Source: Candidatus Moraniibacteriota bacterium (lineage in GTDB: Bacteria > Patescibacteriota > Minisyncoccia > Moranbacterales > GCA-2747515). From it: 64,000 nt of DNA. The stretch is from NCBI GenBank assembly GCA_038208115.1, contig JBBQZC010000006.1:3438-67437 (forward strand), read 5' to 3'. The notes under the pieces are model-generated. The model was given only the letters and a program-made list of their open reading frames with translations, ran no database searches and was not told the DNA's origin. Of this stretch, positions 8,501 through 40,903 are shown piece after piece (the stretch's first letter is position 1; every line of letters starts with the position of its first letter). The translations under genes were made by a program, and so were the position numbers.

Positions 8501-9141
8501 AGCATGGACGATTTGGATTCCTCACGGCAAACGGCACGTTTATTGTTGAGTCAGAAAAAGCAAAGTATGACACAATTCATACTATACAGAATGATTCGTT
8601 ATACGGAGACGTCTATACAGGAGACGTTATTACAATCGATGAAAACAAAGTGATTGCAATCAATATTGCAATGAGTGCAAAAAATGTTGATTGGACAGAG
8701 TATGCACAAAAGAAAGCATCTGCGTATAAAGGATTCTTTTCTATGACAAAAAAATGGGTTTTTATATTGGTGTTTTATGCGGGGTTTATTGCAACCGCCA
8801 TTATCACATATTATAATCCGTCAACTACCAATTTTATTTTTGTTGCGCTGTATGCGGTATTGTTTGTTTTTGATAACTTTATCAAGAAAAAAAAATATGG
8901 CACAGTAGAAACCGTAGATGACAAACCAGTGCCATTTGCGATTGTTTCTCTTTATGACAAAGAATCGCAGGCAAAGAAAACTTTTGCAGTAACAGATGTA
9001 ATTGGAAGATACTATTTATTGGCAGAAAATGGCAACTATAATCTTAAGATTAAGGGACAGCCAATTGGTGGTCATAACTTCGAAAAACAAGGAGATATCC
9101 ATGTGCGTAATGGACTTGTGCGGAAAGATGTAAAAATTTAA
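2548..9141 (+). CDS. Giant (2197 aa) secreted/membrane-anchored multidomain protein: signal peptide, RCC1-like beta-propeller repeats, Cys-rich EGF-like modules, repeated 'TCG(D/E)AAKTY' Cys modules, C-terminal TM helices and a carboxypeptidase-regulatory-like domain
   Basis: Hydrophobic N-terminus. RCC1-like repeat 'HTCARLSDNTMxCWGxNxxGQLG' occurs x7. 'CGDGTCDFENGENVETCSDDC'-type Cys-rich repeats are present. Hydrophobic segments lie near aa 1900-2000, followed by a 'DQHGRFGF' CarbopepD_reg-like motif. Confidence 0.7.
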   Translation: MRKFFVNFSWRFFILCLFFLLQNTETFAGPIDRTATESLILNEFQVVGIAQGWHADDAAWSYALPFTFNYYGVNYTNIRVSSNGYICMDDSASCDSTSPDLSSSYAGPIISALGRDLRTDSINDIYILSDTNHVVIRWLAYEYGYTSQMNFEMVLYSDGSIKFNYGSGPTLNHSAVVGLSNGAGTYLASTYNGRTNFNNVQTSYWSSSSLRVDAFDPADDAIEVSENTSLQMIFDTAVIANVGNVTILKYDDDSEIQTIPISSPLITGWGTDTLVIDIDPLIRDTEYYVMIDADAIKDGDDNYFSGITNESGWNFHTRLSAPMDVLNVDPVDNAQFVTQNSPLHMTFNADVLAGDGDITIYKSSDDSISQTISIASPLVTGWGTDTLTIDIGDLVLDTNYYVFIDGNAIKNSDNVHFVGFDDNVQWNFHTRPSGVKFSLTDDLDTQDRIDTEITEARWDDDAGAYTLWKPTGAWSHADRSSEGNENIQNSGEYTGYNPQIALDNNANQMVVWAENGVIKFTHWNGENTWTAMDGSEGSEDISSSGMGCGPGVCGDGTCDFENGENVETCSDDCHGENVTCGDDICHANLGEDQYNCWEDCSGGSATCGNELCEINGGENLDNCSVDCMGYCGNGLCESDLDESEYTCSEDCSTSDNCRVASKPQIIGDQSGNPIVAWNGYDNNEGVEDTFARRWDGTKWAGMDGQSQFADQLFEDKVVSEDVDFIMLSDNDGNPTVIAGGTETLLHSAWDGTKWTQKNGGDGYEFLSSFGNFYISAADFKFNRATNNPIIVAENSVSGPNVSQWNGSTWSTMDGTSSSKFLTQSMSMSPDPVELSDFSGVLEISLGDQHACARMNDGTVQCWGHNSFGQLGNGSDVNSKDPVTVLGLSNVVEISAGSYHTCARLSDNTMSCWGRNVNGQLGNNSLTQSNVPVTVSGLSNVVEMSSGGEHTCARLSDNTMRCWGLNNNGQIGDNTLTKRMIPVPVSGLSNVVEMSSGGEHTCARLSDNTMSCWGRNVNGQLGDGTTTRRTLPTLVLGLSNVVEMSSGGEHTCARLSDNTMSCWGYNYGGQTSYPFGLYNATPYAVAGLSTVSEITAGGEHTCARLSDNTMKCWGNNGRGQIGDSTFVSNAVPQTLSSLTAVAEISSGYYFTCARLSDNTMRCWGDNDNGQLQHDRFSFRDLKMQIDKEGNPIIAYVYSDIMRGGQNIGLSKWNGNAWVLHRLSVPDYISDLQFELGENDTPILAWTDESDVFVTQWNENEDDWFNLNGEVEGFEQITDGGEINDIQIQMTSRQYPMLIWSHWTPHSTHFTQWNGVNWVRGDDETEGNDMISDPLTTTTIDIVLNENDEPSVVWSEQYGDVHFSMLPLNIESPLVVQSTKLNESITDIVSAKLTADDDLEGESYIEYYLSSDGGEMWNHVNSGQELIFAEKTSDVRWRAVLYKGSMPTLNSVHVNFSTESITPTCGEAARTYSINETEFSGENYTPSSMNFSPASMLNMAVKTFTNIVPAITIDPIITPTCGDAAKTYTYDETTFAGTLCGVGTEDSTPVFPVQGASSAWNCVGTSETVACNASREVEPASEDIMCASGTIDITPSFPELGQTVMWQCQNSTDNVMCSANRAETIIATCGTAAKTYVSTATSFFGGLCTSGTIDITPVFPEKGQMVSWHCQGTSENKICSANRDGDLVPESVDQTKECSTDSTKDVTKNSVILRATVDESYKNDNVKFKIDVKNVQSDEKETIKISETPSDNGKVNLLIDNLLEDTEYEFKVSYEEKDEYLYCPHSKTAKTLKTELITEKEKKEAACGNAAKTYAEDEIEFSGDFCAEGAIDENPLFPAQGAQVSWVCASGDSTKDCSAQREKKNIPVPIVKGGSDPKPVSPEEKKPQKEALKPVTQEPIYQSIATVGIAMGTMLAFATSAVPLFVTVPMAAKDFFIMPFIGLLARRRNEQNWGTVFEKNTKQPIPGVKLMLTDQGGKEIETTYSDQHGRFGFLTANGTFIVESEKAKYDTIHTIQNDSLYGDVYTGDVITIDENKVIAINIAMSAKNVDWTEYAQKKASAYKGFFSMTKKWVFILVFYAGFIATAIITYYNPSTTNFIFVALYAVLFVFDNFIKKKKYGTVETVDDKPVPFAIVSLYDKESQAKKTFAVTDVIGRYYLLAENGNYNLKIKGQPIGGHNFEKQGDIHVRNGLVRKDVKI
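5080..6060 (+). repeat. Intragenic tandem repeats (about 120-150 nt units, several >95% identical) encoding RCC1-like blades
   Basis: The string 'gcacgactttccgataacacgatg[ac]gctgttgggg' recurs at ~5251, 5401, 5551, 5701, 5851 and 6001. Long identical stretches: 5341-5420 matches 5491-5570, and 5551-5610 matches 5251-5310. Confidence 0.85.
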
Positions 9142-18583: not shown

Positions 18584-18612
18584 TTGACATATATGCATAA
18601 ATATGCTATAAT
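18584..18612 (+). promoter_or_regulatory. Perfect-consensus sigma70 promoter TTGACA-N17-TATAAT
   Basis: 'ttgaca tatatgcataaatatgc tataat'. Confidence 0.6.
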
Positions 18613-18668
18613 ATAAAATATTGTTCGTTAATTCCATTTATTTAAAAAGCCTCAAGGAGGGCAGAGTC

Positions 18669-19058
18669 ATGAAAAGCATGAATTATGTGTTTTGTATGGT
18701 TATATTTTTAAGCGTGGCATTCGATATCGCTCAAGTGTTTGCCGAAGACAAGTTAATTGTTGGGGATACTCTAACACCATACAAAGTTGAGGCTGACAAT
18801 CAAGTCGTGTGCGGTTCACAAGTTACAATGCACTTTGATGCACGCAAATCAGTCAAGGAATTTAGCACGGCGATGATGATGGTTTGTCTCTCAAAGGAAG
18901 ATGTCTTGAGACTTTTAAATGAGCAGGGATATATTCCTATCAAAGATGTTGAAGAAATGACCGGATATCACTTTGCTTCAGGCAAAGGACCAATCACAGA
19001 AAAATTGTTCAAAGATGTTGCAAGTGGAAGAGATGTATTTTCACATCTTTTCAAATGA
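18669..19058 (+). CDS. Small secreted protein (paralog A). Start moved to the ATG 8 nt after AAGGAGG; the track start is 18621
   Basis: RBS 'aaggagg' at 18654-18660. Signal-peptide-like 'MKSMNYVFCMVIFLSVAFDIAQVFA'. Paralogous to ORF 19370 ('MVCLSKEDVLRLLNEQG' vs 'IMCRSKDDVMQLLAEQDG'; 'ITEKLFKDVASGRDVF' vs 'MTEKLFSEYLSGRERY'). Confidence 0.6.
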   Translation: MKSMNYVFCMVIFLSVAFDIAQVFAEDKLIVGDTLTPYKVEADNQVVCGSQVTMHFDARKSVKEFSTAMMMVCLSKEDVLRLLNEQGYIPIKDVEEMTGYHFASGKGPITEKLFKDVASGRDVFSHLFK

Positions 19059-19229: not shown

Positions 19230-19262
19230 TTGTTACCTTTTCGCGTCTTGGTCGTTATATAT
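19230..19262 (+). promoter_or_regulatory. ECF-sigma-type promoter motif copy 1: TTGTTAC-N16-CGTTATATAT
   Basis: Exact motif. Identical -35/-10 elements with a 16-nt spacer recur at 19907 and 21666. It lies ~75 nt upstream of the RBS of ORF 19370. Confidence 0.6.
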
Positions 19263-19369: not shown

Positions 19370-19807
19370 ATGGTGAAAAAGATCATGTTATGTGTAGTAT
19401 TGGCAATTTCCTTTTCGGCTGATTGTTTTGCTTCTCGCCATATCACATCTGATGATATCAAAATAATCTCACCGTGTGTTGTGAGATTTGATGACATCCA
19501 AATTTGTGGCAGAGGAAATGTCGTATTGGAATTTTCTGTTGATCCGAAGATTATTAACGAAACAGAAAATTCTCGTGAGGCAAGTCTGATTATGTGTCGT
19601 TCAAAAGATGACGTGATGCAATTGTTAGCAGAGCAAGATGGATCATTATCACACAATGTGACAATTACTCATCAAATTGAGGATATTAAAATGCTGTATA
19701 TCGTTCGCAATGATACGCATATTTATGCACGACCGATGACAGAAAAGCTCTTTAGTGAATATCTTTCTGGCAGAGAAAGATATTATAAATGGTTTGGTAA
19801 GAAGTAG
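19370..19807 (+). CDS. Small secreted protein (paralog B)
   Basis: RBS 'ggagg' 8 nt upstream. Signal peptide 'MVKKIMLCVVLAISFSADCFA'. Homologous to ORF 18669. Confidence 0.65.
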   Translation: MVKKIMLCVVLAISFSADCFASRHITSDDIKIISPCVVRFDDIQICGRGNVVLEFSVDPKIINETENSREASLIMCRSKDDVMQLLAEQDGSLSHNVTITHQIEDIKMLYIVRNDTHIYARPMTEKLFSEYLSGRERYYKWFGKK

Positions 19808-19906: not shown

Positions 19907-19939
19907 TTGTTACCTTATGACTTCTCGTTCGTTATATAT
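19907..19939 (+). promoter_or_regulatory. ECF-sigma-type promoter motif copy 2: TTGTTAC-N16-CGTTATATAT (preceded at 19882-19890 by an extended -10 TGgTATAAT)
   Basis: Exact motif with the same spacing. It lies ~90 nt upstream of ORF 20030. Confidence 0.6.
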
Positions 19940-20029: not shown

Positions 20030-20596
20030 ATGATTATGAAGCACAATTTACTTATAGCAATCCTCCTTATCATCGGCGCAATTCTCATCAGTGCTGTGGT
20101 CTATACAGCGATGAAAACACGTGACATTGCTGCGCCAGAAATGACGAAAGTCAGCATAATGAAGAAAAATAATTCAATGAATGTAAACAATGAGATTAAC
20201 TCAAATGGAGAAGTTGCATATAAAATATATAAAAATGAAAAATATGGATTTGAAGTCACGATACCTAGTGATTGGGTAGTTGGTGATCCAGAGGTTGTAG
20301 ATAGTGCTATCGATGACAAGGGACAGCTAAATATGTATATGATTAGTTTTTTAGCAAAAAGCAAAGGTGAAATGATCGATGTAATGGATTTTATTATTAC
20401 TGCAAAAGACGATGTAAAAAGATGTGATGAGATCATGCTGTGTAATGTTGGTGGAGAGATGGCACAAGGTAATGGATATTATTATGGAATTACACATGGC
20501 TTTCAAGATCAACAATATGTGGATGAATATATAACAGGAACAAATATTAACGAGGAAGGAGTAAAAATACAAGAGTCATTTAAGTTAATCAAATAA
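20030..20596 (+). CDS. N-terminally anchored exported hypothetical protein (family member 2)
   Basis: 'MKHNLLIAILLIIGAILISAVVYTAMKTRDIAAPEMTK' signal anchor. The first 116 nt are identical to ORF 20608. Confidence 0.6.
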   Translation: MIMKHNLLIAILLIIGAILISAVVYTAMKTRDIAAPEMTKVSIMKKNNSMNVNNEINSNGEVAYKIYKNEKYGFEVTIPSDWVVGDPEVVDSAIDDKGQLNMYMISFLAKSKGEMIDVMDFIITAKDDVKRCDEIMLCNVGGEMAQGNGYYYGITHGFQDQQYVDEYITGTNINEEGVKIQESFKLIK

Positions 20597-20607
20597 ATTA
20601 TTGAATT

Positions 20608-21546
20608 ATGAAGCACAATTTACTTATAGCAATCCTCCTTATCATCGGCGCAATTCTCATCAGTGCTGTGGTCTATACAGCGATGAAAACACGTGACATT
20701 GCTGCGCCAGAAATGACGAAAGCTGGGGTGTCTGTACGAAAAAATAAATCGGCAAAAGACGAAATGAAAACGGAGGGAAGTACAGTTTCGTCAGGGTATA
20801 AAAATGTACGTGTGAGTGATGGTATAGTGAATTTTTCATTTGAAGTGCCAGAAAAATGGCTTACAGAGACACGACATTCGGGAGAAAAACAATTGACCAT
20901 AGATGAGATGCGTGAGTTTCTCGCAACAAATTTTGATGGTGACATCAAGGGAGGGGAGGTTTGTCAGGATTGGGAGGAAGAAGATGCAGATACAGGAAAG
21001 ATAACAATAAGAAAGCATTGTGGCTTATTATCATCTGATTACACTGATTTGGCATGGAATGACATTAAGGCGATGAGTGATAAAGAGGTGAAAGATAATT
21101 TTTTTCGAAAAGAGGATGATAAGGATGTTTTTCCAAACGCATCTGTTACTGCAAATGATTTCATTTGGTATACGGATATAAGTTGGGCACAGATTGATTT
21201 TCAGATTGTTGATGAATCTGCTGAATGGGTTGTCGCTAAAGTAAGGAAAGATGATAAAAAATGGTGTGATGAAAATGGTGCGGATATGGCTGGCTGTGGC
21301 GATAATATGTCAAAATGGGCAAAAGCAATAATTGATGGTCAAAATGTTGATTTTGAAACATATGCTACTGACAAAGATGAAAATGGAAATGAATCAATTA
21401 CTAAAGGTGGTTCAGGGGGAAAGATGTATTATATCTCGATACCAAATTCTACAAAATCGTTGAAAATTTGGAAACAAGCTAAAGGCGAACCACAATTTGA
21501 AAAAGATTTTGAGCATCTTATTCAAACATTTAAATTCACTAAATAA
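20608..21546 (+). CDS. N-terminally anchored exported hypothetical protein (family member 3)
   Basis: Same 38-aa N-terminus as 20030. The C-terminal domain is unrelated. Confidence 0.6.
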   Translation: MKHNLLIAILLIIGAILISAVVYTAMKTRDIAAPEMTKAGVSVRKNKSAKDEMKTEGSTVSSGYKNVRVSDGIVNFSFEVPEKWLTETRHSGEKQLTIDEMREFLATNFDGDIKGGEVCQDWEEEDADTGKITIRKHCGLLSSDYTDLAWNDIKAMSDKEVKDNFFRKEDDKDVFPNASVTANDFIWYTDISWAQIDFQIVDESAEWVVAKVRKDDKKWCDENGADMAGCGDNMSKWAKAIIDGQNVDFETYATDKDENGNESITKGGSGGKMYYISIPNSTKSLKIWKQAKGEPQFEKDFEHLIQTFKFTK

Positions 21547-21555
21547 TCTATTTGC

Positions 21556-21592
21556 AAAAAAATCCTGTTACCTATAAATGACGGGATTTTTT
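21556..21592 (+). terminator. Rho-independent terminator
   Basis: 'aaatcctgt..acgggattt' stem followed by 'tttggtg'. Confidence 0.5.
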
Positions 21593-21665: not shown

Positions 21666-21698
21666 TTGTTACTTTTTCGCTTGTGATTCGTTATATAT
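21666..21698 (+). promoter_or_regulatory. ECF-sigma-type promoter motif copy 3, directly upstream of the sigma-factor gene (probably autoregulatory)
   Basis: Exact TTGTTAC-N16-CGTTATATAT. The -10 ends 2 nt before the first in-frame ATG (21700). The functional start is therefore probably the ATG at 21736, which is preceded by a GGGGGAAG RBS. Confidence 0.6.
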
Positions 21699-21735
21699 TA
21701 TGGATACAGTAAATAATAATGTGGGGGAAGATCGT

Positions 21736-22317
21736 ATGGATACATCAGTACAGCGGGATCATCTTGTTGAAGAAAGTATGTGGATCGAGCATTGTCAGCA
21801 GGGACAGATGGAGGATTTCGGACAGATCTACGACACATATGTACGTCGGATCTACGACTTTATCTATTTCAAGACACATCATAAGGAAACGGCAGAAGAC
21901 CTCTGTAGCAAAGTGTTTATGAAATGCCTTGAAAATATCCAGAGCTATAATCGTACACAAGGCACATTTAATTCATGGATTTATCGCATTGCCACAAATA
22001 CGGTGATTGATCATTATCGGACACAGAAAAGTCACAGTGGCATAGAAGATGCATGGGATATCGCAAGTGGAGATGATCTCATGCGAGATGTAGAAAATCA
22101 AGAGAAATTTCTCGCAGTTGAAAAGTACATGCGAGACCTCAAATCAGAACAGCGCGATATCATCATGATGCGTATATGGAGTGGCATGAGCTATCAAGAG
22201 ATTGCGGATATTATCGGTAAGAGTGAAGATAATTGTAAAATGATTTTTTCACGAGCAATCGGCAAAATGCGTAAAGATGTGATTATTGGGTTTCTCGCGT
22301 ATTTCTTTATGAACTAA
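21736..22317 (+). CDS. ECF-type (group 4) RNA polymerase sigma-70 family factor
   Basis: Region 2: 'ETAEDLCSKVFMKCLENIQSY..FNSWIYRIATNTVIDHYR'. Region 4: 'EQRDIIMMRIWSGMSYQEIADIIGKSEDNCKMIFSRAIGKMR'. The track ORF 21700..22317 includes 12 extra N-terminal codons that overlap the promoter. Confidence 0.8.
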   Translation: MDTSVQRDHLVEESMWIEHCQQGQMEDFGQIYDTYVRRIYDFIYFKTHHKETAEDLCSKVFMKCLENIQSYNRTQGTFNSWIYRIATNTVIDHYRTQKSHSGIEDAWDIASGDDLMRDVENQEKFLAVEKYMRDLKSEQRDIIMMRIWSGMSYQEIADIIGKSEDNCKMIFSRAIGKMRKDVIIGFLAYFFMN

Positions 22318-22359
22318 TGATCATTTGTAAAATATATTAATTTTCTAATTAGCGACAAT

Positions 22360-25300
22360 ATGAATCAGTTGATTGAGGAGATCATTCACGATCTCTATGC
22401 ACTGGATAAAGATCTAATCACTTATGATGCGCATGTGAGAAAAATTGTAGAACAAATTATCGCTACAAAACCAGATACGCAATTTGATGATGCATTTAAA
22501 TTGCAATTGCGCAGCGAGATCATGCAGAAGATTGCAGAATTAAAAGAAAATGAAAAAACTGAAGTAGAAGAAGCACCTATTGAAAAAGAATATTTTTTGA
22601 AAAATTTTTTCTCATCACGATGGGTTTTTGTTGCACCAGTTTTTGCTGTTGTGATGGTCATGATCGTTTTGGGATATGCACAATATAATAAAAATGGTGG
22701 TATTTATATAACAAAACAAAATGTACAGTTTGCCTTATCACCAACACAAGCAGACATTGTAGGCGTTGCCCCAGAAACGCATTTTATACTTCGCACATCC
22801 AAGGATGTGTCACATACAACAATAAAAAAGGTGATTGCATTTGATCCTGAAATCGAATTTACAGTAAAGAAAAAAGAGCAATCCGTTTCCTTTATTCCAT
22901 CGGCACGTGCTGCGGAAAATGTGAACGATGGAGATTTGTCATACCAATATGAGATTATTCCTACGGAAAAATTGACGGAAGATCAGATATATAAGATTAC
23001 CGTGAATAATGATAAAATCGCGGATCGTGATTATCAATGGGCTTTTCAGGTAAAAGCACCATTTGGTGTTGTATCTTCAATCCCAGGAGATAAAGGGGTT
23101 GGTGTGCCTGTGGAGTCTGGTATTGAAATACAATTTAATCGTCAATTGTCACAGGATATTTCTCATAACTTTTCAATTACTCCTTCTATAAAAGGTGAAT
23201 TTGACGTGCGTGCAGATCGATTGTATTTTCATCCAACGGAATTATTAGTACCAAAAACAATATACACTGTCACAGTCGAAAAAGGTTCTATCGCAAAGGA
23301 TAATGGGGATGTGATGGAAAATGACTATGCTTTTGCGTTTGAAACAGGTTCAAACGATTCGGACACCTCTTTTTATGATTATACATTTGAGCTAGGTGAA
23401 TCGACAGTTTCTGTTACGCCAGACATGCATCCAATGGTCAGTATTTTGTATGATACTAAAGGAACATTTGATGTATCTTTGTATAAATTGGAAAACATGG
23501 AGGATTATATGCATCGCGTCACACTTCAAAATAATTGGGATCTCATGTGGACAGATTATCATGATCAAAATGACCTATCTGCATATAAACCAGCGGAAGA
23601 CCATAAGATTCTATCGATTCAGGGAGAGTTGATTGACGATATGTATTTTGACATACCTGAAAATTTGGCAAATGGATATTATTTCTTTACGATCACAAAA
23701 AATGATATCACGCGAAGCGGATGGGTCGTAAGCTCGGACATTGCACATTATTATTCTCTATCAGAGGATAATGGCATGATGTGGATATATGATTTCATGA
23801 ATAAAAAACCGATTCAAAATGCACGCATTACACTTCGCAATGATGAACAAAATGTTGATGCACTTGGACAATCAAATAATGATGGTCTTGCTATGTTCAC
23901 AGTGCCTAAGAGCTTGGAGGAATCTGCAGATGAAACGAAACCGCAATTTTTTGTAATCACTTCTGAAGAAGGAAAATCAGTCGCAATTGGTGCAGATTCA
24001 GTATACTACTCAAAAGGTAGTGCAGAGAACTATTATTGGACATATTTATCTACAGATAAAAATAAATATCATAAAACTGACAAAATCAATTATTGGGGCA
24101 TTATTAAGTCACGGAATAGTGATCGTATCAATAGTGCCGTCACAGTCGGATTGTATCAAGGATGTCCAAATAATGTATACAGTACGGATAGTGATAGTGA
24201 ACCCATTATTGTGCAAGAACTTTCAGTGTCGGATTTTGACACGATTAGTGGAGAAATGTCATTGGAAAATGTGCCTGCATCGTCGTATTGTCTCGCTGTT
24301 GTGGATCACACAAAGAAAGAAACAATCACCACACAATGGATTTCTGTAGAATCTTATCAAAAACCTGCATATCAGATCACAGTTACACCATCCACGCCAT
24401 CGATCTATGCTGATGATAAAATGACATTTGATGTACGCGCTTCATTTTATGATGGAACGCCTGTGTCCTTACAAAAATTAAAGTATTCTCTTATAGGAAT
24501 TGAATCATTAGATGGAGAGCTCATATTAGATGAGTCTGGAAACGGAAAATTTGAATATCAACCAAAATATGACGATTCATATATATATTATCCAGTGGAA
24601 ACGACTATTACGTTTTCTCCTGCGGTCGCTGAAGAAGGCGACATGTATGGTCGTGCACATGTGAATGTATTTGGTCCAAACATATATGTATCATCTGAAG
24701 AAAAAAAGATTGCATCTGATACGTATGAAGTGCGTGTCCATGTAAATGAAGTAGTTTTGCAAAATCATTCGCAGGATGAAGAAACGGCAATGGACTCGTA
24801 CATTGGCGATGGCGTAAAAGATCATTCTGTAAATGCGAAGTTGATCGAACTGACATATAGAAAGAAAGAAGTGGGTGAATATTATGATTATATTACCAAG
24901 ACGCAGAAGAAAGAATACGAATATACACAAGAAGAAAAAACGATTGAAAAATTTTCTGGAAAAACAAATAATGATGGTGATTGGGTCTTTGAGAAAAGTC
25001 TTGCAGTAAATCCAGATATTTCGTATAAGATCTCATTTGAGAGTAATGACCAGGATGGTCATAAAAGTGTATCAGATACGTATGTTTATCCGAGCATAAC
25101 AGAAAATGATCATCTTAAATTGGAAATGACGGGGGGTAAGCAGTCTGCGGGAATAAACTACTTTGGAGATTATCAAGATTTCTCTTATGGAGATACGGTC
25201 AAGCTTTCTCTCATGACATCTGATGAAGATCGTGCGCTCGATAATAAAATGTTGATTTATCGATATCAAAACAACATTATGCATGCAAATGTTGTCAATG

Positions 25301-27627
25301 GTAACACATATGAAGAAACATTTACAAAAGATCTTGCGCCTTCTGTAAGTTATCGCGCTGTGATCCTGACGCAATATGGATTTCAAGAAACATATGATGC
25401 GGGTGCTTCTGTTTTTCAAGATGATCACGCATTGACGATTGAAATTATTCCATCGCAAGAAAAGTATAAACCAGGTGATAAAGCTGATGTGGCAGTACAT
25501 ATTGTTGATGTGCACGGTAATCCTGTGGTCGCAGAAGTGAATATTTCTGTTGTGGATGAAGCGCTTTTTCAGAATAATTATGATTGGAATACTAAAATCT
25601 TGCAAAAATTGTATCAAAAAATCTTCACGTATTTGACAACAGATTATACACAATACGCATCTCGTTCAAAAGGTGATGCTGGCGGAGGCGGAGGTGGGGA
25701 TGATCGCTCAAGCTTTGTGGATGTTGCACATTTTGAAAATGTCGTTACTAACAAAGATGGAAATGCCAATTTTACATTTGACGTGCCGGATAATTTGACG
25801 GGGTGGCGTGTTATGGCACGTGCATTTGATACACAAAACATGTCTGCAGGACAAAAAAGTATTATAGTGCCTACATCCTTACCGTTTTTTGTAGATGTGA
25901 ATATTGGCGATCTTTATTTATCTGGGGATGAGCCACAAATGAAAATTCGCTTTTTTGGTGAACAATATGATAAAGAACAACCCGTCACATACTCTGTAAT
26001 AAGTGAGGGGCTTCATATTGATGAAACGAAAACAACAAATAATCCGATAAATGATTTTTTACTAGGAAAAATGCAAACTGGAGAATATCAGATCAAAATC
26101 ACGGCCACGCAGGGAGATAAAAATGATTCACTCATTCGACAGATTCATGTAGCTAATAGTGCATCTCAAAAACGAGTGACAAAAGTTTATCCAATTACTT
26201 CTGATTTACATAACATAAAAGGTAATAGCGATGGTTACACAGATATTGTATTTACTGATATGGGTAAGGCAAAGTTTCATAATGCATTACTGCAGAATGC
26301 TGGCGTGACTGGTGTCAGACTTGATCAAATTGTTGCATCACATTTCGCGAAGGAATTACTCACAGTGCAGTATGAACATAGTGATTTCACAGGAGAATTA
26401 TCTTTGCGGAAGTACGAAAGTGGCGATGATGCAGTTGGATTTGGATTGCAATTGTTGCCATATGGAGGTCTCGATATTGAGCTATCTGCAAAAGTTGCTG
26501 ATATTGCGAAGCAAGATGTCAGTCAAGATGATCTGATATCATATTTTGAGGAGAACATGTATAACGTAAATGCGGATATTCATCGAACGTCAAAAGCGCT
26601 TTATGGACTAGCTTCCTTAGATGAAAACGTATTGTATAAAGTAGATGTTGTGAAATCATTTGAGGCGGACCTCACGATTGAGGATAAAATCTATCTCGCG
26701 CTCGCAGAATATAAAAATGGTGACGTGGAAGGTGCAAGACGCTATTATGAAAATGAAATCAAGAAGCACATCATAATAGATAATGATCAATTTGCATGGA
26801 TTGAAAGTGTGAGTGACGGATTAGAAAAAGAAAAATTGACAGCAACTCTCGGCATCCTCGTATCATATATTGATGATCGACCAATGGCTGAAAAAGTGTG
26901 GCACTATATGGAAACACATGCACCGCAGCGTGACGTGATCGACCTTGAACAAGTGATGATGATTGCATCGGAAATTCAGCATATATCGCAAAAAGAAGCA
27001 TCATGTACAGTATCTACAAATAGTCGCGAGTTTTTTGTCGATCTCAGTGATGATAAAGAAAAGACTTTACATGTATCACAAGATGAATTAGCGTCGCTTC
27101 GCTTTACTGATATCAAAGGAGATATCGTGCTTATTGCATCACATGATGATCTTGTGCAAGAGGACGATTCACAAAAAAATAATCCAGCAGTATCTTTGAC
27201 AAGGTCATACGAAGTGGACGGGAAAAGGACAAATACGTTTAAAGAAGGTGATATAGTCGAGGTGCGTCTTACTCCTAAATTTGAGTCTAACGCAGAGAAT
27301 GGTGGATATCAAATTGTAGATGTGTTACCAAGTGGTCTGAAACCGGCGACCGCAGTATTTGATCCAATGACTATATGGAATGATCCAGAAATCATACAGA
27401 ATGACTGTGATCGTATATGGTATGTGGATCGATTGGATGATAATCGTGTGACATTTAGTTTCGACAGTAACTATGTAAAAGAACATGCGTGTGCAGATTT
27501 TTCGATAAGATATTATGCTCGTGTGGCATCGAAGGGTGTATTTGGTGTCGATCATGCAATGATGCAATCGACACAAAACAGGCAAAATTATTTTATCACA
27601 AATCGTGATCAAATCACAATTAAATAA
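22360..27627 (+). CDS. Membrane-anchored alpha-2-macroglobulin/MG-domain-like giant protein (1755 aa) with ~95-aa cytoplasmic N-terminal domain; candidate anti-sigma/sensor partner of the upstream ECF sigma
   Basis: Single TM helix 'WVFVAPVFAVVMVMIVLGYA' at aa ~97-117. A2M-like motifs 'NVVTNKDGNANFTFDVPDNLTGWRVMARAF' and 'AEVNISVVDEALFQ' are present. No CxEQ thioester motif. It starts 42 nt after the sigma gene. Confidence 0.6.
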   Translation: MNQLIEEIIHDLYALDKDLITYDAHVRKIVEQIIATKPDTQFDDAFKLQLRSEIMQKIAELKENEKTEVEEAPIEKEYFLKNFFSSRWVFVAPVFAVVMVMIVLGYAQYNKNGGIYITKQNVQFALSPTQADIVGVAPETHFILRTSKDVSHTTIKKVIAFDPEIEFTVKKKEQSVSFIPSARAAENVNDGDLSYQYEIIPTEKLTEDQIYKITVNNDKIADRDYQWAFQVKAPFGVVSSIPGDKGVGVPVESGIEIQFNRQLSQDISHNFSITPSIKGEFDVRADRLYFHPTELLVPKTIYTVTVEKGSIAKDNGDVMENDYAFAFETGSNDSDTSFYDYTFELGESTVSVTPDMHPMVSILYDTKGTFDVSLYKLENMEDYMHRVTLQNNWDLMWTDYHDQNDLSAYKPAEDHKILSIQGELIDDMYFDIPENLANGYYFFTITKNDITRSGWVVSSDIAHYYSLSEDNGMMWIYDFMNKKPIQNARITLRNDEQNVDALGQSNNDGLAMFTVPKSLEESADETKPQFFVITSEEGKSVAIGADSVYYSKGSAENYYWTYLSTDKNKYHKTDKINYWGIIKSRNSDRINSAVTVGLYQGCPNNVYSTDSDSEPIIVQELSVSDFDTISGEMSLENVPASSYCLAVVDHTKKETITTQWISVESYQKPAYQITVTPSTPSIYADDKMTFDVRASFYDGTPVSLQKLKYSLIGIESLDGELILDESGNGKFEYQPKYDDSYIYYPVETTITFSPAVAEEGDMYGRAHVNVFGPNIYVSSEEKKIASDTYEVRVHVNEVVLQNHSQDEETAMDSYIGDGVKDHSVNAKLIELTYRKKEVGEYYDYITKTQKKEYEYTQEEKTIEKFSGKTNNDGDWVFEKSLAVNPDISYKISFESNDQDGHKSVSDTYVYPSITENDHLKLEMTGGKQSAGINYFGDYQDFSYGDTVKLSLMTSDEDRALDNKMLIYRYQNNIMHANVVNGNTYEETFTKDLAPSVSYRAVILTQYGFQETYDAGASVFQDDHALTIEIIPSQEKYKPGDKADVAVHIVDVHGNPVVAEVNISVVDEALFQNNYDWNTKILQKLYQKIFTYLTTDYTQYASRSKGDAGGGGGGDDRSSFVDVAHFENVVTNKDGNANFTFDVPDNLTGWRVMARAFDTQNMSAGQKSIIVPTSLPFFVDVNIGDLYLSGDEPQMKIRFFGEQYDKEQPVTYSVISEGLHIDETKTTNNPINDFLLGKMQTGEYQIKITATQGDKNDSLIRQIHVANSASQKRVTKVYPITSDLHNIKGNSDGYTDIVFTDMGKAKFHNALLQNAGVTGVRLDQIVASHFAKELLTVQYEHSDFTGELSLRKYESGDDAVGFGLQLLPYGGLDIELSAKVADIAKQDVSQDDLISYFEENMYNVNADIHRTSKALYGLASLDENVLYKVDVVKSFEADLTIEDKIYLALAEYKNGDVEGARRYYENEIKKHIIIDNDQFAWIESVSDGLEKEKLTATLGILVSYIDDRPMAEKVWHYMETHAPQRDVIDLEQVMMIASEIQHISQKEASCTVSTNSREFFVDLSDDKEKTLHVSQDELASLRFTDIKGDIVLIASHDDLVQEDDSQKNNPAVSLTRSYEVDGKRTNTFKEGDIVEVRLTPKFESNAENGGYQIVDVLPSGLKPATAVFDPMTIWNDPEIIQNDCDRIWYVDRLDDNRVTFSFDSNYVKEHACADFSIRYYARVASKGVFGVDHAMMQSTQNRQNYFITNRDQITIK

Positions 27628-27629
27628 AA

Positions 27630-27661
27630 GAAAAAAGCACTGTATATCGCAGTGCTTTTAT
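27630..27661. terminator. Bidirectional rho-independent terminator between convergent genes
   Basis: 'aaaagcactg tatatcg cagtgctttt' with an A-run upstream and a T-run downstream. Confidence 0.6.
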
Positions 27662-36631: not shown

Positions 36632-39600
36632 ATGAAAAGAATATGTGAGTTTTCAATAATTGGCGTACTCGTTTTTTTTAGTAATTTATATTTTGTTGAA
36701 GCTGTTGATCAATTTACTGCAATTACGATTGGCGGTAGTGACAGTGAATTTGCATCATCTGCTGTCCAAACTTCTGATGGAGGGTATATTTTTGGTGGAG
36801 GGACATACAGTTATGGTTCGGGAGCTGAAAATGCGTATGTGGTAAAAATGACATCGACAGGTATTCTCGACACCACGTTTGGTGTCGGTGGTACGCGTAC
36901 AATTGGTGGAGGAAATAATGATCATGTGGATTCTATTGTTCAAACAATTGATGGTGGCTATATAGTTTCTGGTTATACAGGAAGTTATGGTGCAGGAAAC
37001 AGTGATTGGTACATTGTCAAACTTACTTCAGCAGGCGCTCTCGACACCACATTTGGTGTTGGCGGCACACGTACGGTTGGTAGTGTAAACAATGATTATG
37101 CACTTTCACTTATTCAAATTGCTGATGGGAGTTATTTAATTGCTGGTAGTATGAATAACACTAACCCAGGTGATAGTGATGTATACATTATTAAGCTTTC
37201 CACAACAGGTGTTTTTGATAGTAGCTTTGGTGTAAATGGTAAAGTTGCAATTGGCAGTTCAGATAATGATGAGAGTGTGAAATCTATTGTGCAGACTGCA
37301 GATGATGGTTATATAGTATCTGGATATACAAATAGCTATGGAGCAGGAGGCTATGATATGTACATTGTCAAACTTACTTCAGCAGGCGCTCTCGACACCA
37401 CATTTGGCGTTGGCGGTACACGTACGGTTGGTGGTACTCAATATGATTATGGAAACTCGCTCATAAAAAATGCTTATGGTTATATAGTATCTGGATATAC
37501 AAATAGCTATGGAGCAGGAGGCTATGATATGTATATTGTCAATTTAGATGCAAATGGTGGTATGGGTGATTGTGTGCATAATAGCGGCAGTGGCGGGGAA
37601 ATTGGATCTGGTGGAGCAATATCCTCTGGAGGCACTACTAATCCTATCAATGTTAATGTTGGTGGGTCTGGTGGAATAATATCCTCTGGAGGTGAGCGTT
37701 TATTACAGTGCTCAGTTTACATAGATACAACACCCCCAACTCTCACAGAAGTCACTCAAGTCCCATTACTAACAAATGACAACACTCCATCATATACATT
37801 CAACACAACAGAAGCAGGAACGATCACCTATGCTGGTGATTGTACAAGTACAACAATTGATGCAGTAGTGGGAGATAATACGGTGACATTTGCTACTATG
37901 TCAGACGGTGCTCACAACAATTGCACAATCACTGTTACAGATGCTACTAATAACATCTCTGACTCACTAACAGTACGTCCATTTATAATAGATGCAACTG
38001 CACCAGTTCTCACAGAAGTTACGCCAGTTCCATCACCAACAAATGACAATACACCATCATATACATTTGACAGCTCAGAAAATAAATTTTTTGTTTCATT
38101 TTTTGGTGCATGCCATGCGCCTGCAGCAGAGAATAAAACAATTATAGTGCCACAAGGTGGCGGAAATCCCATTTACAGATACGACATCACCTTTGGTACA
38201 CTGAGTGATGGCACCTATGATGATTGTGCTTTTTTGATACAAGATAGTTTTGCCAATACATCAAACACGCTTGCAATAAACACATTCACCATAGACACAG
38301 CAGGACCAACACTCACACAAGTTACGCCAGTCCCATCATTAATTAATGATAATACACCAAGCTTCACTTTCAATACTACAGAAGCAGGTGTTATAGGTTA
38401 TCAAGGTGATTGTACAAGCGCAACGACTGTAGCCGTGGTGGGGAATAATCAGATTGAATTTAATGCACTTGAAGATGGACTTTATGGTAATTGCGAGATA
38501 TCAATATTGGATGCTTTAAATAATCTGTCTCTCTCATTATTGATAAACGAATTTATTATTGATACGACACCCCCAACTCTCACAGAAGTCACTCAAGTCC
38601 CAACACCAGCCAATAATGCAACACCGGCATATACATTTAGCTCAACAGAAGTAGGAACGATTACATATGGCGGCGATTGCTCTAGTACAACAACTGTGGC
38701 AAGTGTAGGAAATAACACTGTGACATTCAATACTTTGTCAGATCGTGGTTACAACAATTGCACGATTATGGTCACAGATGCTGCTAATAACATCTCTGAC
38801 TCACTAACAGTAAGTCCATTTATAATAGATGCAACTGCACCAGTGCTCACAGAAGTCACGCCAGTCCCATCACCAACAAATGACAATACGCCATCATATA
38901 CATTTCAAAGTTCAGAAGATGTGAGTGGACACATCACATATACTGGTGCATGTGGCACGCCTGTAACTGAAGATGAAACAGAGGGTATGCCACAAGGTGG
39001 CGGAAATCCTATTTACAGATATGACATCACCTTTGGCACTTTGAGTGATAAGGCCTATGATGATTGTACTATTGTGGCGCAAGATGGTCTTGGTAATACA
39101 TCAAACACGCTTGCAATAAATGCATTTACTATTGATGCAGTGCCAACTCTCGCACAAGTCACTCCAGTCCCATCACCAATAGATGACAACACACCATCAT
39201 ATACATTGCATGCAACTGAGTATGTAGATCTTACATTCGCAGGGTCATGTGGCATACCACAAATCGTAGGAAGTGCAGTGGGGACACCAGATCCAAATTA
39301 TACGATTACGTTTGGCGAATTGACAGACGGCACATATGACGATTGCACAATTACTGGAGAAGATAGTACTGGTCACATGTCAAACATACTTACAATCAAC
39401 ACATTTGTCATTGACACAAAAGGACCAACGCTTACCATGGTTACCTCAATTTCATCACCAACTGATGATAATACTCCAAGCTTTATATTTAATACAACAG
39501 ACGCTGGAATTATTACATATGGCGGCGGCTGTTCAGGTGCAACTGCTATGGCTACCATAGGGGATAATACGATTACGTTAAATCAGCTTGCTGATGGCAA

Positions 39601-40903
39601 ATATGACAACTGTTACATCACCGTAGAAGATGCATTACATAATAAATCTACACTTTATCTTGATGATTTTGTTATTGATGTATTTGATCCAGTAATTACA
39701 TCGATTAAGCGATATGAGCCGGAAGAGGAAATTGTTACATATGATGATATAGGTGCGTGGTTTGAAATTACTTTTTCTGAACCTGTTGTAAATGTGGATA
39801 AGGGTGACTTTCTTTATAGCGGAACAGCAGCGAGCTCGATTATTCAAATGGGTGATGACATAAAGATCACACAACCTTCACCACTGGTATATTATGTATT
39901 TACCCCAGATGTATTTGATGGAACATATTATCTTGAAGTACATCATGAAAATAATATTCAAGATACTGCAGGTAATCCTATTGCGCTTACAGTCGGCGAA
40001 ACCGAACGATTCGATTTTCGTATTCCTCCAGTTATTGCAATCGAGGAAGCCGTTTCAGAAGCCACTGGTTCTATCACAGAAAAATTCACAGTCATTGATG
40101 ATTCAGCAATCATGCGTGATAAGATTACAATTGATACGACAGTAGAGGATTCTGCACAAGTATCTGACCTGTCCTGTGTTCAGATAAATAGTCAACGAGT
40201 TGATTGTACTGTTAAAATTTTAGTTACAGGTGGTTTGGTAGTGCGTGCTACGGATGTTGCTGGTAATGAGGCAGTAGAATATTCTGATGGTATTTACACC
40301 ATTGGACGTGATATACCAAGTGGAGACATTGAAATTCCAAAACCAGATCTCAGTTTTTCTGGTAAAATGAAGGATTTGGTATTATCATCACGCAAAAAGA
40401 TTCAAATCAAAAATGATGAGATTAAATTTAAGGGAAAATATCCTGAACTTGCAGGGGGTAAAGTGGTCATTGAGTATAAAAAAGGATCAAGTTCATCAGA
40501 TGAAGAAACTGCAGATATTAATCAAAACGGCGATTGGTCTAAAAAAGTAAAATTTGATAAAAATGGCTCATACAAAATTACATTTATCTACTATGATAAA
40601 AATGGCAAAGAGATTGGAAAAAAGGGACCATATAATATCAAGATTGATACTGAGAAGCCAAAAATCGATGACTTGCCAGGTACGCTTAATAAAAAAGTGG
40701 GAGATAAAATTTGGTGGAGTGCAAAAGATAATGAAAAAATCGATGAATACAAATATATTTTTGCAGGAAAGAAACATAAAACCAAGAATGCGTTCTTCCA
40801 TGTGCCACAAGGTACAGCACCTGGCAGGTATGCGTTAGAGATTTTTGCTTATGATAAGGCAGGAAATAAGGATAAGAAGCAAATTATGATTATCATACGC
40901 TAA
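36632..40903 (+). CDS. Giant (1423 aa) secreted surface protein: signal peptide, delta-60/SBBP-type beta-propeller repeats, Gly-rich linker, ~7 tandem Ig-like (Big) domains, C-terminal beta-sandwich domains
   Basis: 'SGYTxSYGAGxxDxYIVKLTSAGALDTTFGVGGTRTVG' repeats x5. 'PPTLTEVTQVP..NDNTPSYTF.TTEAGTITYxGDC' repeats follow. 'GSGGEIGSGGAISSGG' linker. Confidence 0.7.
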   Translation: MKRICEFSIIGVLVFFSNLYFVEAVDQFTAITIGGSDSEFASSAVQTSDGGYIFGGGTYSYGSGAENAYVVKMTSTGILDTTFGVGGTRTIGGGNNDHVDSIVQTIDGGYIVSGYTGSYGAGNSDWYIVKLTSAGALDTTFGVGGTRTVGSVNNDYALSLIQIADGSYLIAGSMNNTNPGDSDVYIIKLSTTGVFDSSFGVNGKVAIGSSDNDESVKSIVQTADDGYIVSGYTNSYGAGGYDMYIVKLTSAGALDTTFGVGGTRTVGGTQYDYGNSLIKNAYGYIVSGYTNSYGAGGYDMYIVNLDANGGMGDCVHNSGSGGEIGSGGAISSGGTTNPINVNVGGSGGIISSGGERLLQCSVYIDTTPPTLTEVTQVPLLTNDNTPSYTFNTTEAGTITYAGDCTSTTIDAVVGDNTVTFATMSDGAHNNCTITVTDATNNISDSLTVRPFIIDATAPVLTEVTPVPSPTNDNTPSYTFDSSENKFFVSFFGACHAPAAENKTIIVPQGGGNPIYRYDITFGTLSDGTYDDCAFLIQDSFANTSNTLAINTFTIDTAGPTLTQVTPVPSLINDNTPSFTFNTTEAGVIGYQGDCTSATTVAVVGNNQIEFNALEDGLYGNCEISILDALNNLSLSLLINEFIIDTTPPTLTEVTQVPTPANNATPAYTFSSTEVGTITYGGDCSSTTTVASVGNNTVTFNTLSDRGYNNCTIMVTDAANNISDSLTVSPFIIDATAPVLTEVTPVPSPTNDNTPSYTFQSSEDVSGHITYTGACGTPVTEDETEGMPQGGGNPIYRYDITFGTLSDKAYDDCTIVAQDGLGNTSNTLAINAFTIDAVPTLAQVTPVPSPIDDNTPSYTLHATEYVDLTFAGSCGIPQIVGSAVGTPDPNYTITFGELTDGTYDDCTITGEDSTGHMSNILTINTFVIDTKGPTLTMVTSISSPTDDNTPSFIFNTTDAGIITYGGGCSGATAMATIGDNTITLNQLADGKYDNCYITVEDALHNKSTLYLDDFVIDVFDPVITSIKRYEPEEEIVTYDDIGAWFEITFSEPVVNVDKGDFLYSGTAASSIIQMGDDIKITQPSPLVYYVFTPDVFDGTYYLEVHHENNIQDTAGNPIALTVGETERFDFRIPPVIAIEEAVSEATGSITEKFTVIDDSAIMRDKITIDTTVEDSAQVSDLSCVQINSQRVDCTVKILVTGGLVVRATDVAGNEAVEYSDGIYTIGRDIPSGDIEIPKPDLSFSGKMKDLVLSSRKKIQIKNDEIKFKGKYPELAGGKVVIEYKKGSSSSDEETADINQNGDWSKKVKFDKNGSYKITFIYYDKNGKEIGKKGPYNIKIDTEKPKIDDLPGTLNKKVGDKIWWSAKDNEKIDEYKYIFAGKKHKTKNAFFHVPQGTAPGRYALEIFAYDKAGNKDKKQIMIIIR
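37700..39480 (+). repeat. Tandem near-identical ~850-nt repeat units (two Ig-like domains each) within the giant surface gene
   Basis: 37716-37760 matches 38566-38610 ('acacccccaactctcacagaagtcactcaagtccca'). 37931-38060 is almost identical to 38771-38900. Similar blocks lie at 38280-38330 and 39400-39450. Confidence 0.8.

Follow-up and report, generated by a model that had tools for sequence, protein, structure and literature searches.

Pairs of an extracytoplasmic function (ECF) sigma factor and its anti-sigma factor are a major bacterial route for sensing the outside, and the signal that such a pair reads is set by the ectodomain of the anti-sigma factor. The locus described here raises the question of what might be sensed when the gene next to an ECF sigma gene encodes a membrane protein with an ectodomain of the alpha-2-macroglobulin (A2M) type. 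The locus lies in a stretch of 64,000 nucleotides (nt), hereafter the window, on contig JBBQZC010000006.1 (positions 3,438 to 67,437, forward strand; assembly GCA_038208115.1) of a Candidatus Moraniibacteriota bacterium; the window has ~37% G+C, and its coding is mostly on the + strand. In the window, an open reading frame (ORF) for a sigma factor is followed, on the same strand, in the same frame and after a gap of 42 nt, by an ORF for a protein of 1755 amino acids (aa). An earlier note, made from the sequence alone, had proposed that the two gene products form a protease-sensing sigma/anti-sigma system. Sequence comparison indicates that the two genes probably do encode a sigma/anti-sigma pair; proteolysis of the A2M-like ectodomain is a tentative candidate for its trigger.

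The product of the upstream gene is a sigma factor of the ECF type (group 4): it consists of sigma2 and sigma4 regions only, is ~190 aa long, and matches Pfam Sigma70_r2 (56 bits), Pfam Sigma70_r4_2 (40.3 bits) and TIGR02937 (97.5 bits; cutoff, 42.9). The closest subfamily model is the BldN-like model TIGR02952, yet the score is under the curated cutoff (130.1 vs. 206.45 bits). Translation likely starts at the ATG at 21736, because the -10 element of the promoter ends only 7 nt 5' of the alternative ATG at 21700; the ribosome-binding site GGGGGAAG serves the ATG at 21736, the start on which the earlier note had also relied. Terminator-like hairpins (21557-21592 and 27633-27659) flank the sigma gene and the gene for the large protein, no such hairpin lies between the two genes, and the operon holds no second candidate anti-sigma gene. 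The ORFs, the Pfam matches and the TIGR02937 match bear out the arrangement described in the earlier note: an ECF sigma gene directly before the gene for a single-pass membrane protein. It is highly improbable that the adjacency is a coincidence or an artefact of gene calling or assembly: the sequence is of metagenome type, which is all that speaks for such an origin, whereas the pair recurs in independent assemblies from several phyla (and is retained in two orthologous loci, L001 and L004, despite different surroundings), the promoter motif is conserved, and the 5.3-kb ORF is intact, with full-length homologs that align from residue 1.

The large protein has a single hydrophobic helix, at approximately aa 87-111 (hydropathy maximum, 2.59, at aa 89). 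An AlphaFold2 (AF2) model places a disordered linker at aa 71-90, ahead of a transmembrane (TM) helix at aa 91-111, and the ectodomain beyond the helix comprises ~1,640 residues. There are 5 Cys residues in all, the first at residue 602. The cytoplasmic N-terminus is, as had been claimed, Cys-free; its length, which had been put at ~95 aa, is ~86-90 aa. The first 70 residues are modelled as three helices (aa 2-15, 17-36 and 44-70) with a predicted local distance difference test (pLDDT) score of ~86, and these residues show a mean column identity of 77% among orthologs, vs. ~41% for the whole protein (close homologs of the large protein have 37-46% identity). By AF2 and gene order, the protein thus begins with a helical bundle of ~70 aa that leads into a TM helix, and its gene lies directly 3' of a sigma gene. 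RseA/sigmaE, RsiW/sigmaW and RslA/SigL, which are under the control of regulated intramembrane proteolysis, likewise have sigma-then-anti-sigma gene order, a helical cytoplasmic N-terminus of ~70-90 aa and one TM helix. Unlike these anti-sigma factors of class I, the window protein has no zinc motif or Pfam anti-sigma match in its N-terminus (which, being Cys-free, contains no HxxxCxxC and matches no zf-HC2 model) and has a roughly ten times larger ectodomain with an A2M fold.

Three comparative lines, all drawn from sequence, favour an anti-sigma function for the large protein. The first is that synteny tracks the N-terminus. A scan of species-representative genomes gave more than 545 relatives of the large protein, from Patescibacteria, Bacillota, Chloroflexota and other lineages, and scripted detection of ORFs and sigma genes at 80 of these loci found an ECF sigma gene directly upstream at 20. 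For 73 scorable non-redundant loci, 23 sigma-linked and 50 without sigma, we scored whether the A2M-like protein is extended N-terminally, with 35 aa or more ahead of its TM helix. An extension is present at all 23 loci with a sigma gene directly upstream (none is shorter), vs. 7 of the 50 loci with no sigma gene upstream (43 are shorter; Fisher p=3.6e-13). Among the seven exceptions, some are over-extended ORFs in high-GC genomes, one (L025) has an unrelated small N-terminal domain, and for four (L051, L062, L064 and L076) we saw no explanation. The earlier note had held that A2M-like genes without an adjacent sigma gene in related genomes would speak against its proposal. Many such genes exist, yet their products mostly lack the N-terminal extension, and the result therefore supports, rather than refutes, the idea of a sigma/anti-sigma pair.

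The second line is that a true anti-sigma domain occurs on the same scaffold. At the Bacillota locus L048, Pfam zf-HC2 (29.6 bits; cutoff, 22.2) stands ahead of a TM helix and an A2M-like ectodomain, and the sigma gene and the zf-HC2/A2M-like gene overlap by 4 nt. Other sigma-linked clades (Peptococcaceae-like, Uhrbacteria-like and others) have N-terminal types of their own, which share a Pro-x-x-Phe-(Lys/Gln)-x-x-Leu helix. In a neighbour-joining tree of the ectodomains, sigma-linked members, with different N-terminal types, fall in at least five places or clades; this scatter implies that the coupling was gained or lost repeatedly. That it recurs in different phyla, and with differing anti-sigma modules, speaks for a functional coupling that has been selected. 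The N-terminus of the A2M-like family is evidently a place where modules are often exchanged: the sigma-less relatives L025, L049 and P0015 have yet another small cytoplasmic domain there (roughly ...G.S...I...L...GWS...I...).

The third line is that the N-terminal module of the window protein is reused behind sigma genes. An exhaustive HMMER profile search with the module matched 607 cluster representatives (E<=1e-3), nearly all of them from residue 1, at the extreme N-terminus. The exhaustive search was required: a word-indexed protein search with the same profile gave one fragment only, and a metagenome scan gave one locus only. Most carriers are single-pass proteins of ~450-600 aa, and six of these that were scanned matched no Pfam family; some carriers have a VWA/YfbK_C or a DKNYY ectodomain, and others are further A2M-like proteins. 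An ECF sigma gene lies directly upstream of the module gene in 6/6 carriers that were placed on contigs, with gaps of 13-60 nt; the sigma gene is complete at five of these loci, and at the sixth, at a contig edge, only the sigma C-terminus is present. The window sigma shares 68-70% identity with its counterparts in L004 and L001, 47-48% with sigmas whose partner carries the same module on another ectodomain (five complete loci) and 19-32% with sigmas partnered with other N-terminal types. The main module carriers (P0043-P0189, for example L088:3001-4533 and L091:2501-4144) seem to make up a large and uncharacterised group of sigma/anti-sigma systems that runs to hundreds of clusters at 50% identity. 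Directly 3' of one sister anti-sigma gene (P0116) lies a gene for a protein with a Kazal-type protease-inhibitor domain (L095:4414-5664), a single case that fits a protease-related theme for this sigma group.

The link between sigma gene and extension, the zf-HC2 domain in L048 and the reuse of the module beside related sigmas lend support to the sigma/anti-sigma reading of the earlier note. They make it improbable that the large protein is not an anti-sigma factor, that is, that the sigma simply drives the gene for a neighbouring surface protein, whose N-terminal module would serve localisation or oligomerisation, and is itself controlled otherwise, perhaps through its own C-terminal tail. 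The alternative draws on two observations: no homology to known anti-sigma domains was detected, and the sigma group has a conserved hydrophobic C-terminal tail. It has to accommodate the strict co-occurrence of sigma and extension, a zf-HC2 domain at the same position in L048, a module found behind sigma genes on different ectodomains, with sigmas ~47% identical to that of the window, and an operon with no other candidate for the anti-sigma role. The tail, a stretch of 10-15 residues that follows region 4, ends every sigma that is paired with a window-type N-terminal module (besides the window sigma, those of L001, L004, L088, L089, L091, L092 and L094); sigmas of other groups do not have it. 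A normal TM helix would need more residues than the tail offers; it may be a docking or membrane-association element.

The ectodomain has an A2M fold without a thioester motif. The protein matches Pfam Big_5, A2M_BRD and A2M, all above gathering scores, and contains the motifs VVDEALFQ and PDNLTGWRVMARAF. A phmmer search of PDB sequences with the full protein as single query gave no match; a profile of 21 homologs matched Escherichia coli YfhM/ECAM (5e-19) and Salmonella A2M (6e-16) in the same database, and also CD109, human A2M, TEP1, cobra venom factor and C3/C5. The AF2 model of aa 556-1755 (mean pLDDT, 80) consists of beta-sandwich domains, a helical domain at aa ~1301-1539 and a C-terminal beta domain, and in a Foldseek search with this model ECAM (5a42; 1e-49) and Salmonella A2M came out on top, followed by A2ML1, TEP1, C5 and CD109. 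Homologs of the window protein match Pfam bMG10, and fragments of one ortholog, from Candidatus Moraniibacteriota, are named 'alpha-2-macroglobulin family protein' and 'Ig-like domain-containing protein' at NCBI. Pfam, the profile search and the structural comparison thus confirm the A2M and macroglobulin (MG) homology that had been noticed from motifs. Confirmed as well is the absence of the thioester motif CxEQ from the whole protein. CxEQ is likewise absent from 26/26 close homologs and is present in more distant, lipoprotein A2Ms of Anaerolineae. The term thioester domain (TED) is only a positional label for the helical domain at aa ~1301-1539. A conserved G-x-R-L-D-Q was considered as a degenerate thioester motif and was dropped, since the helical-domain profile matched no TED in the PDB.

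The order of domains (MG domains, bait-region domain, A2M domain, helical domain, C-terminal MG10) is that of YfhM (ECAM) and Salmonella A2M (PDB 5a42, 4ziq and 4u48). Both of those are lipoproteins, have a CxEQ thioester and lack a link to a sigma, whereas the window protein is held by a TM helix, is thioester-less and bears a cytoplasmic module. The lipobox Cys of a YfhM/ECAM-type lipoprotein signal is absent: no Cys precedes residue 602, and the TM helix begins at aa ~87, after a cytoplasmic part. Bacterial A2Ms of the MagD/YfaS type are thioester-less and, like the window protein, have Pfam Big_5 alongside MG and A2M domains; the anchor of the window protein differs from theirs. The neighbouring genes that were scanned include none like other A2M-associated genes, no search having been aimed at mag/yfa genes. 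A further difference is that the hosts of the A2M-like relatives include lineages that we take to be monoderm (Bacillota, Chloroflexota and candidate phyla).

The only long disordered stretch in the AF2 model, aa 1092-1118, sits between the A2M_BRD domain and the A2M domain, at the bait position. In the family alignment, the N-terminal half of this loop is variable, and a Gly-rich run and the Arg that follows it are conserved. In five relatives (P0010, P0011, P0012, P0020 and P0021), one of which is sigma-linked, the Gly-rich loop is interrupted, exactly within its length, by a Hint/bacterial-intein-like domain (Pfam PT-HINT, Vint). The insertions start at a GG/CF junction, end with VHN and then D, E, Q or A, and have no +1 Cys, Ser or Thr; because a +1 nucleophile is missing, the Hint domains more likely cleave than splice. 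Their sequences suggest self-cleavage rather than splicing at the bait position, and the insertions suggest that a break of the backbone at the loop is tolerated or used.

A promoter motif points to the genes that the sigma may transcribe. TGTTAC-N15-TCGTT(A/G)TA precedes the sigma gene of the window and those of four orthologous loci; the motif TGTTAC-N15-TCGTT is kept 5' of the sigma gene in L001, L004, L008 and L011, and also in the sister systems L088, L091 and L092. With its AAC-type -35 element and CGT-type -10 element it resembles autoregulated ECF promoters of Bacillus subtilis. At L004, two tandem copies (798-823 and 953-978) precede one sigma gene. The window holds exactly three copies of TGTTAC-N15-TCGTT, vs. 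0.12 expected, all on the + strand and all intergenic, and terminator-like hairpins separate the three units that they head. The guess of the earlier note that the genes for secreted proteins upstream of the sigma gene belong to its regulon is thereby supported. In L001, L008, L010, L011 and L093 an extra copy stands directly before the A2M-like gene; on this evidence from sister genomes, the A2M-like protein would itself be a target of its proposed partner sigma.

Considering these results together, we propose the following mechanism. The three-helix module (aa 1-70) would hold the sigma at the membrane, and the A2M-like ectodomain on the surface would act both as a protease decoy or shield and as a sensor, with effector and sensor in one molecule. 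Proteolytic damage, most plausibly a cut in the loop at aa 1092-1118, would destabilise or shed the ectodomain; the remaining stub would then be open to intramembrane proteolysis, in the manner of other single-pass anti-sigma factors; and the freed sigma would transcribe its own operon, replacing the consumed A2M-like protein, together with genes for small envelope proteins. We regard the chances as evenly balanced that the locus encodes an ECF sigma/anti-sigma pair in which proteolytic damage to the ectodomain frees the sigma. Ectodomain proteolysis as the trigger, taken by itself, we advance tentatively, from three features that may point to proteolysis at the loop: a fold shared with protease-trapping A2Ms, a disordered loop at the bait position and Hint insertions at that loop. 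More doubtful, and offered as a possibility, is a bait-and-release switch in the full sense, in which an attacking extracellular protease would cut the exposed loop of a decoy that is the same molecule as the anti-sigma factor, so that protease attack is converted directly to transcription and the surface shield is re-armed. On this view, Patescibacteria, Bacillota and other lineages, presumed to be monoderm, would have put the coupling together on several independent occasions and from different anti-sigma modules.

A number of results weigh against the proposed mechanism. The loop at the bait position is short, and conservation of its Gly-rich/Arg half sets it apart from typical hypervariable baits. 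The protein contains neither CxEQ nor a C..Q motif of any kind, and a sequence profile of the helical domain, searched against the PDB, gave no TED, only TPR-like noise. A search of the N-terminus against Pfam at E<=10, anti-sigma families included, returned noise only, and hhalign comparison of the N-terminus with the other sigma-linked N-terminal types gave a weak result (E=0.0015; probability, 17%). The window genes that were scanned include no protease, protease inhibitor or site-2 protease, and the candidate regulon genes are without known function. Approximately three quarters of the A2M-like family have no sigma, and most of these have a Memo-family gene instead: a Memo-family gene (PF01875) lies directly 3' of the A2M-like gene, often overlapping it, at 57 of 88 loci (13 sigma-linked). 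In a family that is mostly sigma-less and Memo-coupled, the primary activity of the ectodomain need not involve proteases. Neither the window nor its Moraniibacteria clade has a Memo gene, and a search of the window for a Memo homolog and for a second sigma found none. Some Memo copies elsewhere are fusions of 590-670 aa.

Several of these results are shared by a serious rival, which we rate as less likely: the two genes would form a sigma/anti-sigma pair, but the ectodomain would sense a signal other than a protease, such as a ligand, a component of a host cell or of the cell wall, or the state of its own export, folding or assembly, and the Gly-rich loop would be a structural hinge or a maturation site rather than a bait. 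A conserved C-terminal half of the loop across the family, a missing thioester, a helical domain with no recognisable TED sequence and a majority of sigma-less, Memo-coupled relatives, which point to some other core biochemistry, all suit a non-proteolytic signal, as does the presence of the same anti-sigma-like module on unrelated ectodomains, by which the signal would be set by the ectodomain. The fold and domain order are nonetheless those of protease-trapping A2Ms, the only long disordered segment of the model is at the bait position, and Hint domains predicted to cleave themselves are inserted precisely at that loop in some relatives; these three features fit a proteolytic signal better. 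The coordinates of the features on which the argument rests are collected in Table 1.

Table 1. Features of the sigma/A2M-like locus, of its candidate regulon and of related loci (window positions unless a locus is named)
Feature	Position	Strand	Details
ECF-type motif copy 1 (TGTTACCTTTTCGCGTCTTGGTCGTT)	19231-19256	+	5' of ORF 19370-19807
Candidate regulon gene	19370-19807	+	145 aa; N-terminal signal-like hydrophobic stretch; no Pfam family
ECF-type motif copy 2	19908-19933	+	5' of two-gene unit 20030-21546
Candidate regulon gene	20030-20596	+	188-aa membrane-anchored protein; PsbP_2 25.4 bits, under cutoff of 27
Candidate regulon gene	20608-21546	+	312-aa membrane-anchored protein ending TFKFTK
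ECF-type promoter of sigma operon, putatively autoregulatory	21667-21692	+	TGTTAC-N15-TCGTT
ECF sigma gene	21736-22317	+	193 aa; alternative start 21700
Hydrophobic C-terminal tail of sigma (VIIGFLAYFFMN)	22279-22314	+	
A2M-like membrane protein gene	22360-27627	+	1755 aa; anti-sigma-like N-terminus, TM helix, A2M-fold ectodomain
Cytoplasmic three-helix module, proposed anti-sigma domain	22360-22569	+	aa 1-70
TM helix, signal-anchor, N-terminus inside	22630-22692	+	aa 91-111 (AF2)
Big_5 Ig-like domain	23056-23346	+	aa 233-329; Pfam 42.8 bits, cutoff 23.6
A2M bait-region domain (A2M_BRD)	25174-25572	+	aa 939-1071; Pfam 26.7 bits, cutoff 22.7
Disordered bait-position loop TQYASRSKGDAGGGGGGDDRSS	25633-25713	+	aa 1092-1118, 27 residues; pLDDT 26-32
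A2M domain with PDNLTGW	25735-25947	+	aa 1126-1196; Pfam 32.9 bits, cutoff 21
All-helical domain at thioester-domain position	26260-26976	+	aa ~1301-1539; AF2 secondary structure
C-terminal beta domain, related to bacterial A2M MG10	27127-27624	+	best family-profile stretch vs. YfhM/ECAM, Salmonella A2M
Terminator-like hairpin, operon end	27633-27659		
Hint domain in P0020	L007:8112-8501		aa 1038-1167
Memo-family examples	L005:8049-8966; L006:10076-11074; L033:9118-10104		

Anti-sigma factors whose ectodomain is itself the receptor for an external agent are among the nearest parallels in principle. In the modular RsiV/SigV and RsgI/SigI types, the anti-sigma ectodomain directly binds an enzyme or polymer from outside, and this recognition opens the way to cleavage; the folds, a lysozyme-binding domain and carbohydrate-binding modules, are different from A2M, and the sigma families differ too. 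The earlier note called the sensor domains of known anti-sigma factors small, which overstates the case: DdvA of Myxococcus xanthus, which works with DdvS, has 991 aa and a periplasmic TPR-CHAT domain that has been called unusually large (PMC11506125). Large anti-sigma ectodomains therefore exist, and size alone is not a categorical novelty. The cytoplasmic anti-sigma domain of DdvA comprises three helices and ~70 residues and binds zinc; the RseP site-2 protease excludes substrates with bulky ectodomains, and for DdvA, intramembrane proteolysis by an RseP homolog has been proposed (PMC11506125). The window protein is like DdvA in being a candidate TM anti-sigma factor with a three-helix domain of ~70 residues and an unusually large, protease-related ectodomain. 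It is unlike DdvA in that the DdvA ectodomain is a TPR-CHAT (caspase-like) domain of ~620 residues in a diderm (PMC11506125), whereas that of the window protein has the A2M fold and ~1,640 residues, in a candidate-phylum bacterium.

Full-text searches turned up no relevant paper in which anti-sigma factors and macroglobulins are brought together, and A2M or MG domains go unmentioned in the main texts of two papers, one that reclassified the ECF sigmas and one on the coevolution of class I anti-sigma factors. We thus found no description of an anti-sigma factor with an A2M-fold ectodomain, and its N-terminal module matches no Pfam family. If the sigma/anti-sigma reading is right, the A2M-fold ectodomain would add to bacterial sensing a sensor from a protein family known for reacting to proteases, and would offer a first way into the function of the membrane-anchored, thioester-less A2M-like proteins, a family that is large and uncharacterised. 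If the bait-and-release switch is right as well, it would constitute a widespread form of protease sensing, of which we have found no description, and would put the complement/A2M fold to a new use, in signal transduction. By-products of the analysis are an anti-sigma-like module at the head of over 600 protein clusters, a promoter motif marking out a small candidate regulon in an uncultivated lineage, and a system open to testing in a heterologous host.

The candidate regulon genes have paralogs in the window. The products of 20030-20596 and 20608-21546, a unit that ends at the terminator-like hairpin 21557-21592, are tandem paralogs whose first 38 aa, the N-terminal anchor, are identical, and which therefore reflect recent duplication or gene conversion. 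The products of 18621-19058 and 19370-19807 are paralogs at 25% identity, and the ECF motif is present only at 19370-19807; for 18621-19058, the promoter, at 18584-18612, matches the sigma-70 consensus perfectly. BLAST at 1e-4 found no orthologs of the window regulon proteins in the related loci. A small all-against-all comparison gave a weak family resemblance and a shared C-terminus: proteins weakly related to the product of 20030-20596 adjoin the sigma/A2M pair in L093, L008 and L004, and the ending TFKFTK recurs in L008 1147-1713 and L004 76-660, which adjoin the sigma/A2M pair in these sister genomes.

Three further genes of the window, each without the ECF promoter motif, encode very large predicted surface proteins: 60-2351, with FG-GAP repeats and a Peptidase_S74 chaperone domain; 2548-9141, a product of 2197 aa with RCC1 repeats, Big_5 and CarboxypepD_reg; and 36632-40903, a product of 1423 aa with Big_13 and DUF5122.

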